NCBI GenBank assembly: GCA_028344335.1
Contig: JAOMAZ010000001.1
Location: forward strand, 11,468-75,467
Direction of reading: 5' to 3'
Length of the DNA: 64,000 nucleotides
Origin: Deltaproteobacteria bacterium
GTDB taxonomy: Archaea > Thermoplasmatota > Poseidoniia > Poseidoniales > Poseidoniaceae
Each line of letters starts with the position of its first letter. Positions within the stretch are counted from its first letter, which is position 1. Below, in pieces: positions 4,649-23,962 of the stretch. A program made the translations under genes and the position numbers. The notes beneath the pieces were generated by a model. The model did no database searches. It saw only the letters and a list, made by a program, of their open reading frames with translations, and was not told the origin of the DNA.

Positions 4649-6508
4649 ATGACGATCATAGAAAGATGGGATCCCAGCCGACCGGGACATCGATTATTGG
4701 ATGTTCTGAAGAAAGAAATACATAACCGCGGAATGCCAAGCGGAGAGCGAATCCGAGAGATTGCAGAACTTTGTGATACTACTGCTGCAAAGGTGAGGGG
4801 AGCGATTGGCTATTATGCCGAATTAAAACCAAGTGATCACACAGTTAGAGTTTGTACTGGAGAGTCGTGCCGAGCCAGAGGTGCTGATGCTTTAATCAAG
4901 GAATTAGAAGACTCGGGTGAACGAGTTGGAGAGTTGATTTGTGCTGGACTTTGTGCTTGTGGACCTGCGGTACTTCGAGACGAAACTGTACCTCAATTTG
5001 TATCTCAACAAGGAAGCGGCAGTCAATTCTATATCAGCCAAGATAGTACTAGTATTGCGATTGGCTGTGAAGAAATCGCCACCACCTTAATTCAACATAT
5101 TCCGAAAGATTCTGCGTTAATTCGAACAGGGAGTAGAGGTCTATTCCATATTGAGCCTACGCTAGAAGTGGATATAGAAGGTAAAAGACATGCTTTTGGT
5201 CCTATTACCTCGGCAGAGATTCCTTCAATCCTAGATTCAATTACTAATCAACAAATCCATCCGAAATCACTTGGCCTAGTTGAAGATTTACTCAAAAATC
5301 AATCAAGATATGCAATGCAAAGATTTGGTCATGCTAATCCTCTTGATTTGGAAGGAATGAAGGAACTAGGAGCCTACCAAGGATTGGAAAAAACCAAAGA
5401 AATTGGTAGCAAGGCAGTCATTGAAGAATTGAAGACTGCAGGCTTGAGAGGGCGTGGCGGAGCTGGATTCCCAACTCATTTCAAGTGGGCAGCAGCCGCT
5501 GCCGAACAAACGGATTTGAAATTCGTAGTGGCAAATGCCGATGAAGGAGATGCTGGTACATTCATCGACCGGATGATAATGGAAGGTGATCCTCATGCAT
5601 TAATCGAGGGGATGGCGATTTGCGCTCAAGTAATAGGGGCAAGTCAGGGGAAAGTCTACCTTAGGAGCGAATATCCTCATGCTGAAGTAACACTGGAAAG
5701 TGCCTTACAAGGTGCAAGAAATGAGGGAATCCTTGGAGACCATTTTGATATTGAGATAGCAATTGGAGCTGGCTCATATGTTTGTGGGGAAGAAACAGCG
5801 CTGCTTGAGAGCCTTGAAGGCAGGAGAGGAGAAGTTAGGGCACGCCCACCATTTCCAACAACTTCTGGTCTATTCGGTAAACCTACAATCGTCAATAACG
5901 TCCTGACATTCGCCTTAGCGGCGGCAATAATGAGAGTTGGAGGAGAGCATTACGGAAGCCTCGGAGTCGAATCAAGTAAGGGCACAGTAGTTGTTCAAGC
6001 AACTGGTACCTTAGAACGTCCTGCTTGTTTCGAGATTCCTTTTGGTGGAAGTATTGGTACTATACTCGATTCATGGTGTGGATGTGAGGAAGTAGTTGCA
6101 GTACAAGCAGGAGGGCCTCTTGGTTCGGTATTCAAAATGCAAGAAATGTATGATATAGAATTATCATTTGAGGGTTTGGCAAATGCAGGTGGCTTACTTG
6201 GCCATGGTGGTTTCGTTTGTTATGATGCTGATTTTGACGCTCATAAGGAAGTTGTTGGCTGGATGCGTTTCTTCCGCGACGAGAGTTGTGGAAAATGCAC
6301 CCCGTGTCGGATCGGCACTCAACGGGCTTTGGAATTGATTGAACGCTTGGGTGGAGACATGGAAAAAGAAGGCGATAAGAAATTACTGACCGACCTAGAT
6401 GATTTAATGACCTCAACCTCTCTCTGTGCACTTGGTGGATTAGCGATGAACCCAGTGCGCTCGACCATGGAACGTTGGCCAGCCGCCTTTGGGGGTGAAC
6501 AGAAATGA
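4649..6508 (+). CDS. fdsB: NAD(P)-linked formate dehydrogenase beta subunit: a NuoE-like [2Fe-2S] domain fused to a NuoF-like FMN/NADH/4Fe-4S domain (FdsB-type).
   Basis: The NuoE-like N-terminus (VCTGESCRARGAD...) is followed by the NuoF glycine-rich segments GLRGRGGAGFPT and ANADEGDAGTF, and Cys clusters CGKCTPCR. The start is uncertain: the track ORF begins at 4541 and the first plausible Met after the fdhD stop is at 4649. Confidence 0.8.
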   Translation: MTIIERWDPSRPGHRLLDVLKKEIHNRGMPSGERIREIAELCDTTAAKVRGAIGYYAELKPSDHTVRVCTGESCRARGADALIKELEDSGERVGELICAGLCACGPAVLRDETVPQFVSQQGSGSQFYISQDSTSIAIGCEEIATTLIQHIPKDSALIRTGSRGLFHIEPTLEVDIEGKRHAFGPITSAEIPSILDSITNQQIHPKSLGLVEDLLKNQSRYAMQRFGHANPLDLEGMKELGAYQGLEKTKEIGSKAVIEELKTAGLRGRGGAGFPTHFKWAAAAAEQTDLKFVVANADEGDAGTFIDRMIMEGDPHALIEGMAICAQVIGASQGKVYLRSEYPHAEVTLESALQGARNEGILGDHFDIEIAIGAGSYVCGEETALLESLEGRRGEVRARPPFPTTSGLFGKPTIVNNVLTFALAAAIMRVGGEHYGSLGVESSKGTVVVQATGTLERPACFEIPFGGSIGTILDSWCGCEEVVAVQAGGPLGSVFKMQEMYDIELSFEGLANAGGLLGHGGFVCYDADFDAHKEVVGWMRFFRDESCGKCTPCRIGTQRALELIERLGGDMEKEGDKKLLTDLDDLMTSTSLCALGGLAMNPVRSTMERWPAAFGGEQK

Positions 6509-20016: not shown

Positions 20017-20442
20017 TTAGCAGCAACCGTGCTCCCGCATAGGTGCTGCAACAAACTCAACCTTGTCGACATCTTGGGTATTGTTCAGTTTATCAATTGC
20101 TTTTCTAAAGGAAAGCGCATTACCACGAACCTGCATCGTATCAACGCAAGAATGGCTTTCCGTCAAGCAATTATGATGGAAAGAGAATACATCGATTTCA
20201 TGAGAATGACGCAATTCCATGAGTTTATTTTCGACCCCGTGCTGGTAATAGATTACAATAGTGCCTTCCAATAAAGTGTCATTGTCCATTGTTTTAAGGT
20301 CGCCTCTGCGCTTAGCTTCAGCAAAATGTAGACTTGCATCACGCAAAAACATACTCCGGTTTTTATAGCCAGAATCGGTGATTAATCGTGCTAATTGTTC
20401 GGCGAACTCGTTGTCCGTACTGAATGAGAGTATTCGACTCAT
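20017..20442 (-). CDS. nikR: Nickel-responsive regulator NikR: ribbon-helix-helix domain plus C-terminal metal-binding domain.
   Basis: The RHH N-terminus is MSRILSFSTDNEFAEQLARLI. The C-terminal H...H...HHNCLTE...H pattern matches the NikR high-affinity Ni site (E. coli HVHLDHDNCLE). Confidence 0.75.
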   Translation of the reverse strand: MSRILSFSTDNEFAEQLARLITDSGYKNRSMFLRDASLHFAEAKRRGDLKTMDNDTLLEGTIVIYYQHGVENKLMELRHSHEIDVFSFHHNCLTESHSCVDTMQVRGNALSFRKAIDKLNNTQDVDKVEFVAAPMREHGCC

Positions 20443-20453
20443 GATACTGTCTC

Positions 20454-20481
20454 TATGACGAAATTAATAATAGTTTTCATA
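20454..20481. promoter_or_regulatory. Candidate NikR operator: inverted repeat TATGA-N18-TCATA in the 62-nt nikR/ZIP divergent intergenic region.
   Basis: The sequence ctcTATGAcgaaattaataatagtttTCATAtacc begins 12 nt upstream of the nikR start codon. It resembles the E. coli NikR box GTATGA-N16-TCATAC. An AT-rich TATA-like element lies between the half-sites. Confidence 0.5.
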
Positions 20482-20504
20482 TACCTATTAGTGGAGGCGA
20501 TGGC

Positions 20505-21647
20505 ATGGCAGAAGCACCATTTCTTTACGTTGCACTAACTCTAGTTATAGCCCTAATCGCTGGACTGATACCTGTTTTCTCAAAGATAAAAGACAATCAA
20601 GAGCGGTTGAAAATTATGACCGCCATAGCATCTGGAATTATTATTGCCTCTGCAATGCTGGTTGTAATTCCAGAAGGATACGAAATTGCAACCCAAGAAG
20701 ATGCACATACTGAGGATGATGCCTTAGCAGGTTCAATCGCTTTAGTATTGCTCGAAGTTAATCACGGAGATATTACTAATGCGCAAGCAATCGAGGAGAT
20801 TGAAGGTCTCCTCGGAGGTCATGATGATCACGACGGCCATGAAGAAGAATCTGATCACGACAGCCATGAAGAAGAATCGAATCATGAAGCCAGTGATGAA
20901 ACACTTTCCGATTCTGTAAAGCACATCATCGAAGAATATGAGGAAGGTGCGATTAATGCAACTGCTGCCTTAAATGAGATTGAAACTGCAATATCCGGCC
21001 ACAATCATGCTGGCGAAGAAAGTCATGCTGAGCATATTAATGGACTACTGTTGGGTGGAGCGATTCTCGCAGGGTTCATGATGATGTTCATCCTTGAAGG
21101 TTCGGGAATTGGCCATGCTGTTCACGAGGAGCACCACAACCACGGCGATGAGCATGGGCACGAGCATGTCCACCACAGCAACTCCGGCTGGATGTTAGTT
21201 CTCGGTTTGACCCTGCACTCCGCAACCGATGGTTTGGCAATAGGTGCAGCTGCAGCATCTGGTAGTATCGCATTGACCGCGACCGTTGCCCTTGCAGTAT
21301 TGATTCACAAAGCACCAGCTGCATTTAGCCTAGGTGTCTTCTCGATGCACGAGAGAGAAGAGAGAAATGATACAATCAAAGATGTTGTCATTTTTTCACT
21401 CGCTACACCTGTCATGATGCTATTAGCATACTACGCTCTTGCAGACCTAGAGTCTCACCTCATCGGTTTGGCTATGCTATTCTCCGCTGGAACTTTTCTC
21501 TACATTGCAACCGTAGACACATTGCCTGATATCCACAACCCAGAAACAGGAAAGAAAGCGGTGATGTACGTTCTAGTAGGAGTTGCAATCCTGACACTTC
21601 TACTGATTTTAGCAAATACTGTAGGCTTACTTGAGCATGCTCATTGA
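20505..21647 (+). CDS. ZIP-family divalent metal transporter (ZupT/GufA-like) with His/Asp/Glu-rich loops.
   Basis: Multiple TM helices. Two His-rich loops: HDDHDGHEEESDHDSHEEESNHEA and HAVHEEHHNHGDEHGHEHVHH. ZIP TM4/TM5 signatures: LHSATDGLAIGAA and LIHKAPAAFSLGV. Confidence 0.75.
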   Translation: MAEAPFLYVALTLVIALIAGLIPVFSKIKDNQERLKIMTAIASGIIIASAMLVVIPEGYEIATQEDAHTEDDALAGSIALVLLEVNHGDITNAQAIEEIEGLLGGHDDHDGHEEESDHDSHEEESNHEASDETLSDSVKHIIEEYEEGAINATAALNEIETAISGHNHAGEESHAEHINGLLLGGAILAGFMMMFILEGSGIGHAVHEEHHNHGDEHGHEHVHHSNSGWMLVLGLTLHSATDGLAIGAAAASGSIALTATVALAVLIHKAPAAFSLGVFSMHEREERNDTIKDVVIFSLATPVMMLLAYYALADLESHLIGLAMLFSAGTFLYIATVDTLPDIHNPETGKKAVMYVLVGVAILTLLLILANTVGLLEHAH

Positions 21648-22666: not shown

Positions 22667-23458
22667 TTGCGACGCAGAGACGAGGATGTGCCCAATCCCT
22701 TTTCCAAAGGGCCTGCTCGCCCTACCCGTAAAGTGCCACCAAAGTCTAAGCCTCAGCCAAAAAAACAAAACCGTCCTCAACCCCAGCATTCTACTAAGGC
22801 AGCAGCCGATAAAAAGCGCAAAGAAGCACTGGCTCAATTGAAAAACCAATCTAACCAATCTGCTAGTGGTCCTGCAAAAGCAGGGGGTGGCGACCGTGGT
22901 TCAAAAACTACTGCTAATGTGTCCGGTAGGAAAAAGGAAATAAAACAGGAAACTCGAGAGGACCGCCTTGCTGAATTAAGCCGTCAACAACGAGTCATGG
23001 GTGGGGAGACTGAGATCAAACCAGGAGTTGCCAAAAAGCAACATGAATCTTCAATCAAGCCTTCAGAAGAAGCAATCGCTTCAGTTCAACCAAAGGCAGA
23101 GCCAGTCAATGTCTTTGCTCCAAAGCCAAAGGGTGCAAAGGCAAAGGCCGGAGCGCCTGCTCGTCGCTTTAATAGGCGCCGAGAAAAGAAGGGTGGAGGT
23201 CGCCAACCACAGGTTAAAAAATTAGACCGCCGCAAGTATTTGGAATACAAGTACGTGGTTCGTGATTTATTAGATGATGATGCTATCGATGAAGAGAACC
23301 GCTCTAATGTGCTTGGACAAGTCTGGGCAAAAGGCGAGAGGATTAGTGTCGATGCGGCTATTGAATTCATAGATGAAAAACAAACAGAACTGATAATCCC
23401 CAAGAGTGTTGCAGATGACTTGCGTTCTCTTGTAAAGAAATATACAACTAAGAGATAA
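22667..23458 (+). CDS. Lys/Pro/Gln-rich basic protein with a low-complexity N-terminal half and a structured acidic C-terminal roughly 80 aa. Hypothetical, possibly nucleic-acid binding.
   Basis: The N-terminal roughly 180 aa is dominated by K, P, Q, A and R. The C-terminus KYLEYKYVVRDLLDDDAIDEE...SLVKKY looks globular. The start is uncertain. Confidence 0.45.
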   Translation: MRRRDEDVPNPFSKGPARPTRKVPPKSKPQPKKQNRPQPQHSTKAAADKKRKEALAQLKNQSNQSASGPAKAGGGDRGSKTTANVSGRKKEIKQETREDRLAELSRQQRVMGGETEIKPGVAKKQHESSIKPSEEAIASVQPKAEPVNVFAPKPKGAKAKAGAPARRFNRRREKKGGGRQPQVKKLDRRKYLEYKYVVRDLLDDDAIDEENRSNVLGQVWAKGERISVDAAIEFIDEKQTELIIPKSVADDLRSLVKKYTTKR

Positions 23459-23467
23459 GGTGTTAAA

Positions 23468-23962
23468 ATGGACGAAGATTTGAAAATGGAAAAAGATATG
23501 ATTGCTAGTGTACATTATACTGGTACTTTGAAAGATGGTGAACAATTTGACAGCAGTGAAGGTCGTGACCCTCTAACTTTTCTAGTTGGGCACATGCAGA
23601 TGATCCCCGGCTTTGAAGAAGAAATGATAGATGCTAAGGTTGGCGAAAGTAGAACCTTCACCCTTACACCTGACCGTGCCTATGGTCAGCGCGACGAAAG
23701 CGGAATCATCGAGATTCCTCGTGAACAATTTCCCGAAGAAATGGAATTGGAAGTAGGAATGACTCTTGTTGCTGATATGGAAAATGGACCTGCCCCTTTC
23801 AATATCCTTGAAGTAAATGATACAATTGTTAAGGCTGACTTCAACCATAAGTTGGCTGGAGAATCCCTTACCTTTACTGTTGAGATAGTCGAACTACGCA
23901 AAGCTAGCGAAGAAGAGTTGGCACACGGCCATGCTCATGGACCCGGCGGACACCATCACTGA
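23468..23962 (+). CDS. slyD: SlyD-like FKBP-type peptidyl-prolyl isomerase with an insert-in-flap domain and a His-rich C-terminal metal-binding tail.
   Basis: The FKBP core is VHYTGTLKDGEQFDSS...LTFLVGHMQMIPGFEE. The C-terminus reads ELAHGHAHGPGGHHH. Confidence 0.8.
   Translation: MDEDLKMEKDMIASVHYTGTLKDGEQFDSSEGRDPLTFLVGHMQMIPGFEEEMIDAKVGESRTFTLTPDRAYGQRDESGIIEIPREQFPEEMELEVGMTLVADMENGPAPFNILEVNDTIVKADFNHKLAGESLTFTVEIVELRKASEEELAHGHAHGPGGHHH

Follow-up and report, generated by a model that had tools for sequence, protein, structure and literature searches.

A NikR-family regulator, a ZIP permease gene and a candidate AT-rich operator in Poseidoniales archaea: a possible zinc-responsive switch

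What does a regulator of the NikR family control, and which metal does it sense, when the gene transcribed divergently from its own encodes a ZIP permease, not a nickel importer? This question is raised by a locus in the 64,000-nucleotide stretch of Poseidoniaceae DNA analysed here (hereafter the window), in which a NikR-family gene and a ZIP-family gene are separated by a short spacer (Table 1). We read the locus as a two-gene metal-uptake switch, in which a tetrameric repressor of the NikR family would sense zinc and repress zinc uptake, and we give this reading slightly better than even chances. The gene arrangement itself had been proposed in an earlier annotation made from the sequence alone (hereafter the original prediction) and was borne out. 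The 141-amino-acid protein scored 34.4 bits with Pfam NikR_C (PF08753, cut-off 22) and the 380-amino-acid protein 109.7 bits with Pfam Zip (PF02535, cut-off 35.1); the two open reading frames (ORFs) are divergent, as described for a ribbon-helix-helix regulator and a His-rich ZIP, and the spacer has the length of 62 nt that had been given. Both of the His/Asp/Glu-rich stretches quoted for the permease were found in the translated ORF, and the protein has two long loops of this composition. The NCBIfam ZupT equivalog scored 47.4 bits on it, below the cut-off of 252.

In order to define the DNA that such a repressor may recognise, 29 upstream regions were aligned without gaps. A conserved AT-rich element, AATTAWTAR-N6-TTAAATA-NN-TAWTA, was located at positions 20462–20490, and the consensus of the aligned relatives reads AATTAWTAR - cATTTn - TTAAATA - nn - TAWTA. 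It is composed of a left half-site (box B, AATTAATAA in the window), a central TATA-box-like block and a right half-site (box C). The centres of the box B and box C cores lie 21 bp apart, and in several relatives the two boxes form a perfect inverted repeat, AATTAATA-N16-TATTAATT. A position weight matrix was built from 28 relatives, with the window left out, and used to scan the source assembly (1.32 Mb, 57% complete), which was searched as the genome. The window site scored 30.3 bits and the next-best site 14.0 bits, so that the scan gave one hit, at the ZIP gene, and none near sodN. When only the half-sites were searched (TTAWTAR-N15-TAWTA), two matches were obtained in the source genome, one of them the locus site, against 0–3 in simulated genomes and 10 for the reversed control; there was no evidence of further half-site-only sites in this 57%-complete assembly. 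The sequence comparison thus gives good support to the element at 20462–20490 as the candidate operator.

A different operator had been put forward in the original prediction, namely an inverted repeat TATGA-N18-TCATA. A perfect repeat of this form is indeed present in the spacer, at 11 nt from the regulator start codon and not the 12 nt given, but its frequency is that expected by chance. There is one match in the window, where shuffled sequences gave a mean of 0.09 and at least one match in 9 of 100 shuffles; in the 1.32-Mb assembly the same site is the only match, and the reversed pattern, used as control, gave two per strand. The search for further copies elsewhere in the genome, which had been suggested in the original prediction, gave none in the 57%-complete assembly. 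Among the upstream regions of homologous regulators the repeat occurs in 1 of 109 (97 distinct), which is the window's own, and it is already lost, through disappearance of the left arm, in relatives whose regulators are 96% and 89% identical. The left arm is unconserved sequence and the right arm is part of the conserved central block. Because of the chance-level count and the lack of conservation, the repeat was rejected as the operator. The broader proposal, a shared operator for transporter repression and autoregulation, stays plausible given the conserved gene pairing, provided that it is moved from the TATGA repeat to the AT-rich element.

Table 1. Features of the NikR/ZIP locus, with positions in the window
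Feature	Position	Strand	Basis or remark
NikR-family regulator gene, 141 amino acids	20017–20442	minus	ORF and Pfam NikR_C
Divergent intergenic region, 62 nt	20443–20504		Both promoters and the conserved element lie inside
Inverted repeat TATGA (20454–20458)-N18-TCATA (20477–20481)	20454–20481		Chance-level, unconserved
Box B, left half-site, consensus AATTAWTAR	20462–20470		Alignment columns 5–13; each column agrees in 22–29 of 29 sequences
Central block TCATATA, consensus TTAAATA, TATA-box-like	20477–20483	plus	Alignment columns 20–26; putative role
Box C, right half-site, TATTA, consensus TAWTA	20486–20490		Alignment columns 29–33
GGAGG, Shine-Dalgarno-like, 7 nt 5' of the ZIP ATG	20493–20497	plus	G-rich block kept in relatives, columns 39–41
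ZIP-family permease gene, 380 amino acids	20505–21647	plus	ORF and Pfam Zip

The element was then followed through the order Poseidoniales (Marine Group II), represented by genomes of Candidatus Poseidoniales, Poseidoniaceae and Thalassarchaeaceae. Of the 61 genomes of this order that were searched, 37 have the regulator, counting the source genome. Relatives were scanned with the 27-nt pattern TTAWTAR-N7-WAWATA-NN-TAWTA, allowing one mismatch at most. The pattern was found at the regulator/transporter locus in all five near-complete relatives, and in the four genomes where the regulator lies away from any transporter a single perfect match was found directly upstream of a ZnuA-family gene (4/4). 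Among the relatives tested, the element therefore occurs in 9/9 of those that bear the regulator, in each case at the promoter of a ZIP or ZnuA gene, and no match to the pattern was detected in 10/10 genomes without a detected regulator, each at least 91% complete. Eight of these ten have ZIP genes, of a shorter type (about 285 amino acids); the ZIP of the window locus is of the 'long' type, which travels with the regulator. An element that stands before two transporter genes of unrelated families and accompanies the regulator behaves as an operator would, and not as would be expected of a gene-specific promoter.

Some variations on this arrangement were also recorded. In a minority of Poseidoniales (L103:1985-2416, L116:1-2310, L092, L120) the regulator adjoins an HxlR-type regulator or a surface protein with collagen repeats and DUF7151. 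Regulators unlinked to a transporter have two TAATAATAAT-like boxes upstream and lack the full element, which stands at the distant znuA. Next to znuA genes located away from the regulator, on their upstream side, a gene for a small double zinc-ribbon protein is present in 3/4 genomes (L124:1031-1423, L125:1571-2185, L126:1094-1555). One genome (G067) has two overlapping one-mismatch matches on its contig 29. Two extra one-mismatch matches on contig 13 of another (G014), which lie between ORFs with RING-finger domains on an AT-rich contig, were judged to be due to chance. That contig (L039, L040) encodes RING-finger (C3HC4) domain proteins, which are unusual for an archaeon, and this suggests a viral or eukaryotic contaminant.

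The identity of the transporters placed under this element is informative about the metal. In a set of 30 relatives, 20 regulator loci have a divergent ZIP gene; eight of the other ten were scanned and all eight have a member of the ZnuA family. In a second, overlapping set of 80 loci, 32 have ZIP, 39 have ZnuA, six have something else and three are cut by a contig end; two of the six bear the element and look like ZnuA. The pairing of NikR with a ZIP, which had been considered atypical for this family, is therefore upheld as such and is also conserved. Conversely, the regulator is found in 15 of 17 ZnuA-bearing relatives. One near-complete relative has as partner a ZnuA of 856 amino acids, followed by ABC_tran (ATPase) and ABC-3 (permease) genes, as in an ATP-binding cassette (ABC) importer. 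The best solved relatives of this ZnuA are the zinc-binding AdcA (7jj8, E = 3.3e-36), YcdH and AdcAII, with manganese- and iron-binding proteins ranking lower, and His, His, His and Glu are retained at the aligned ligand positions, which we take to be the metal-ligand positions of the ZnuA family. All partners recognised are thus ZIP or AdcA/ZnuA-type ABC importers, and no known nickel importer or nickel enzyme is among them. The His-rich loops together with the zinc-type alternative partner point indirectly to zinc as a candidate substrate of the ZIP permease.

At the ZnuA-linked loci the spacer is longer (85–89 nt) and carries an extra regulator-proximal box, ATAATAATT, yet the distance between boxes B and C remains fixed. 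The short-spacer form coupled to ZIP would be the new piece in this comparison, in that one element can serve both promoters. The 856-amino-acid ZnuA (L122:6909-9479, minus strand; also L117:2-2413) has a peculiarity of its own, an insert of several hundred residues between the two ZnuA lobes that carries EF-hand calcium-binding domains (EF-hand_7, 53 bits; SPARC_Ca_bdg).

The regulator was characterised next at the protein level. It belongs to the NikR family by its modelled fold, at some distance from the typical members: the NCBIfam NikR equivalogs were missed (NF003381, 44 versus 105; NF002815, 31.7 versus 83; TIGR02793, 23.8 versus 175), and the closest solved relative in sequence is the NikR of Pyrococcus horikoshii (2bj1, E = 3.2e-8). 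The AlphaFold2 model, with a predicted local distance difference test score (pLDDT) of 75.5, contains two ribbon-helix-helix helices (residues 11–24 and 29–46) and an ACT-like C-terminal domain of beta-alpha-beta-beta-alpha-beta topology; the helices are modelled even though Pfam RHH_1 gave no score in the Pfam scan of the regulator. The top Foldseek matches are NikR structures (2bj3, E = 1.1e-8, and also those of Helicobacter pylori and Escherichia coli), with full-length alignments of 136–144 columns, so that the fold is that of NikR and not the Fur-type winged helix.

A four-copy model of the regulator obtained a score of 0.82, against 0.24 for the best control, with contacts agreeing by at least 91% between runs and partner pLDDT of at least 81. 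For comparison, 20 of 30 solved pairs attain the mark used for such models, as does 1 of 23 single chains; as NikR tetramers have already been solved, the score indicates likeness only and may reflect structures that the predictor had learned. In this model residues 1–45 of two copies are intertwined, residues 78–79 of one chain contact residues 86–92 of another, as expected for a metal site between chains, and the C-terminal residues 133–141 are packed on residues 93–100 of the partner chain. The regulator is hence predicted to be a homotetramer held together through its C-terminal domain, as in NikR.

One important question is whether the nickel site of NikR has been preserved. In the alignment with the P. 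horikoshii and H. pylori proteins, three of the four nickel ligands have counterparts in the regulator, namely H79, H90 and C99. At the fourth position, which is His in these two proteins and in five canonical-type sequences, the regulator has C92 (HxH to HxC), and a one-residue insertion precedes the Cys ligand. Of 30 relatives, 28 have Cys at position 92 and the other two have Ser; H68, H79, H90, H97, C99 and the C-terminal G139-C140-C141 are invariant in 30/30. The canonical His3Cys site is therefore not kept, and the set reads His2Cys2. The H...H...HHxC motif that had been taken for a nickel site is present, but on alignment it does not correspond to the canonical ligand set: three of the four residues are conserved in the C-terminal domain and the remaining His is replaced with Cys. 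A second, uncharacterised clade of NikR-like proteins (P0150, P0162, P0165, P0174, P0178, P0189) has HxD and Cys-Cys-(Asp/Glu)-Val in place of the HxH...C ligands, and may mark another metal switch within the family.

The mechanism that we propose is read from sequences and models as regards DNA binding itself, repression as the direction of control, the identity of the metal and the choice of block serving as the TATA box. When zinc is replete, the metal would load at the remodelled interface of the C-terminal domains, formed by H79 of the neighbouring chain together with H90, C92 and C99; the invariant C140 and C141 may join this site. The metal-loaded regulator would then bind the half-sites AATTAWTA and TAWTA through its two ribbon-helix-helix dimers. 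As these half-sites flank the TATA-like block in the spacer, initiation of ZIP transcription would be blocked. Autoregulation is also proposed, because box B stands at the TATA position of the regulator gene, whose transcription would be blocked as well. When zinc is scarce, the apo-protein would leave the DNA and the importer would be made.

We see even chances for an extension of this mechanism to the whole clade. According to it, this NikR clade has switched its metal, by exchanging a single His of the nickel site for Cys and acquiring a C-terminal Gly-Cys-Cys, and has become the zinc sensor of the most abundant archaea of the surface ocean, gating either ZIP or ZnuABC through one operator and taking the place of Zur. 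When 61 Poseidoniales genomes were searched for members of the Fur/Zur family, no more than 5 gave a hit. In its passages on zinc transport, the study of Rinke et al. (2019; PMC6461757) assigns a zinc transporter to most Poseidoniales and ties it to the low zinc of surface waters.

The position of the element with respect to the two start codons was analysed in relation to promoter function. Measured from its centre, box B lies 25 nt from the start codon of the regulator gene; the centre of the central block is the same distance 5' of the ZIP ATG, and about 25 nt is the usual distance from TATA box to start in leaderless archaeal mRNAs. The upstream regions of the source genome show a Shine-Dalgarno-like G peak at -9/-8 and a weak T/A signal from -30 to -24, and the enriched hexamers are of the CCTATA/TATAGG type, which suggests that leadered and leaderless genes coexist and that the TATA consensus is unusual. 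When the 80 nt preceding each of 811 ORFs were examined, the heptamer TTAWATA was encountered only four times, and the central block was consequently rejected as the usual TATA box of this genome. Box B would be more than the regulator's own TATA box, since its distance to box C is fixed despite the spacers of 85–89 nt.

Several observations weigh against the zinc switch and its operator. The compared genomes are kin, and the co-occurrence counts thus overstate independence. Part or all of the AT-rich element may be promoter sequence. The rarity of TTAWATA upstream of genes makes the TATA role of the central block uncertain; if the GGAGG that precedes the ZIP start means a leadered mRNA, box B would be at the TATA position instead. 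As regards the metal, a His2Cys2 site is able to accommodate either of the two, zinc or nickel, and ZIP and ZnuA-family transporters carry manganese, iron or cobalt in some organisms. These archaea do use nickel: a nickel superoxide dismutase (Ni-SOD, 154 bits) and an adjacent S26-type maturation peptidase (sodX) are encoded in the source genome itself (contig 9, 17229–17615; L121:6197-6784, 5908-6270), and Ni-SOD was detected in 28 of 41 genomes searched. No hit above the cut-off was obtained for the NicO nickel importer in 61 genomes or for CbiM in 41 genomes, and because no dedicated nickel importer was found, a nickel role for the ZIP and ZnuA transporters is possible. Finally, reviews hold that NikR senses nickel only, by way of a conserved square-planar His3Cys site (2024 review, PMC11672702, section 3.2.8), and in the passages concerned a 2026 preprint likewise treats the NikR family as having a single cognate metal.

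In the best of the alternatives, the regulator would sense nickel, and the ZIP permease (ZnuABC in relatives) would be a nickel importer that feeds Ni-SOD, with the operator corrected as described above. Membership of the NikR family, the three nickel ligands kept out of four and the nickel-only view of the reviews speak for it, together with the Ni-SOD and sodX genes and the missing NicO/CbiM importer, which leave the entry of nickel to be accounted for. We nevertheless consider it unlikely. In a set of 37 relatives, the occurrence of the regulator shows no link to that of Ni-SOD (17 with both, 8 with the regulator only, 7 with Ni-SOD only and 5 with neither). No other nickel enzyme was found: urease gave 0/61 genomes above the cut-off, and the [NiFe]-hydrogenase was rejected as a nickel client, since the hydrogenase-family hits are limited to profile positions 1–69, in ORFs of about 380 amino acids, and are probably NuoD homologues of complex I. 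The ZnuA partner ranks with the zinc-specific AdcA and YcdH and keeps its His-His-His-Glu set, which points to a pocket that has not been remodelled, and the canonical His3Cys set of the regulator is lost. The nickel or transition-metal uptake regulon of the original prediction is accordingly doubtful as far as nickel is concerned, in view of the ZIP or AdcA/ZnuA-type partners, the His to Cys change and the eight regulator-bearing relatives without detected Ni-SOD.

A quite unlikely alternative is that the signal is neither zinc nor nickel: manganese, iron, cobalt, cadmium or copper, redox state through the Cys residues, or pH as for the H. pylori NikR, with the regulator controlling a broad divalent-cation importer. 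The ZIP (ZupT-like) and cluster A-I binding-protein families do include carriers of manganese, iron and cobalt, manganese- and iron-binding proteins appear lower in the ZnuA hit list, and redox activity is conceivable for the four Cys residues that are invariant or nearly so. However, on general coordination chemistry the Cys/His-rich ligands appear unlike those of typical manganese or iron(II) sensor sites, and the His-rich loops seen on both kinds of partner favour zinc, as does the AdcA-like ranking. When the zinc-type partners, the Cys-rich ligands and the independence of regulator and Ni-SOD are weighed against the presence of Ni-SOD, zinc comes out as somewhat probable, and nickel and the other signals as improbable. 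That the element is merely a shared core promoter (TATA box and B recognition element), with a regulator that has its target at another place, or does not act on DNA at this locus, and whose adjacency is historical, would fit its AT-richness and its promoter distance from both start codons but is very unlikely, because the 27-nt pattern is shared by two transporter genes without homology to each other, is unique in each genome, follows the regulator (9/9 genomes with it against 0/10 without it) and is unlike the hexamers enriched upstream of the other genes of the source genome.

The zinc switch proposed here can be compared with characterised systems. The operator of E. coli NikR at nikABCDE is GTATGA-N16-TCATAC (PMC7055735, section 2.1). 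The Poseidoniales regulator resembles the E. coli protein in its ribbon-helix-helix and ACT-like C-terminal domains, in the predicted tetramer and in the location of its gene beside that of an importer; the half-sites lie about two helical turns apart in both cases, with the same N16 spacing as in the inverted repeat of the relatives. In contrast, its half-sites are AT-rich and unrelated in sequence, its ligands are His2Cys2 plus a C-terminal Gly-Cys-Cys instead of His3Cys, and its target is ZIP or ZnuABC and not a nickel ABC importer. The NikR of P. horikoshii (2bj1/2bj3/2bj7) is an archaeal repressor of an importer, as is proposed for the Poseidoniales regulator, and is the best match in both sequence and fold, but identity is only 26–28%, and the replacement of the second His of HxH by Cys, the one-residue insertion and the extra Gly-Cys-Cys tail set the two proteins apart. 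In H. pylori the NikR operators are AT-rich and weakly conserved. The likeness lies in AT-rich, partially palindromic half-sites that can overlie promoter elements; the H. pylori protein differs in responding to nickel and pH, in its canonical His3Cys site, in its global regulon and in the spacing of its sites. Bacterial Zur, a member of the Fur family, is a metal-loaded repressor of znuABC and zupT and is often autoregulated. The role proposed here, repression of high-affinity zinc uptake, is the same, but the folds are unrelated and Zur is a functional analogue only.

The closest precedent is found in Methanothermobacter, where a NikR homologue (MTH603/MTBMA_c09830) lies beside ZnuABC according to section 15.4 of Kaster et al. 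(2011; PMC3087415). As at the Poseidoniales loci, a NikR homologue there adjoins a zinc importer, and a zinc role for it was already raised in that section, which is the only printed suggestion of this kind that we found and which, unlike the present analysis, is given without operator or ligand analysis. Our literature search retrieved no test of the Methanothermobacter suggestion, nor any publication in which a zinc regulator resembling NikR is described for Marine Group II.

Two further ORFs lie downstream of the ZIP gene in the window. One, of 263 amino acids (22667–23458, plus strand), is rich in Lys, Pro and Gln and has no Pfam match. The other (23468–23962, plus strand), 1.8 kb 3' of the ZIP gene, encodes an FKBP-type (SlyD-like) peptidyl-prolyl isomerase with a His-rich C-terminal tail, HGHAHGPGGHHH, and is possibly a metal chaperone.

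A practical consequence of this analysis is that a transporter gene beside a nikR homologue should not automatically be annotated as a nickel transporter gene. If the zinc reading is correct, the regulator would be the first non-nickel NikR, and its clade would constitute a natural experiment in which a square-planar nickel site was turned into a zinc site. NikR is the textbook case of a single-metal family, and a clade that senses zinc after a known exchange of one ligand would provide a direct handle on metal selectivity. It would also mean that the missing zinc regulator of the Marine Group II archaea, which live where zinc is scarce, has been identified.

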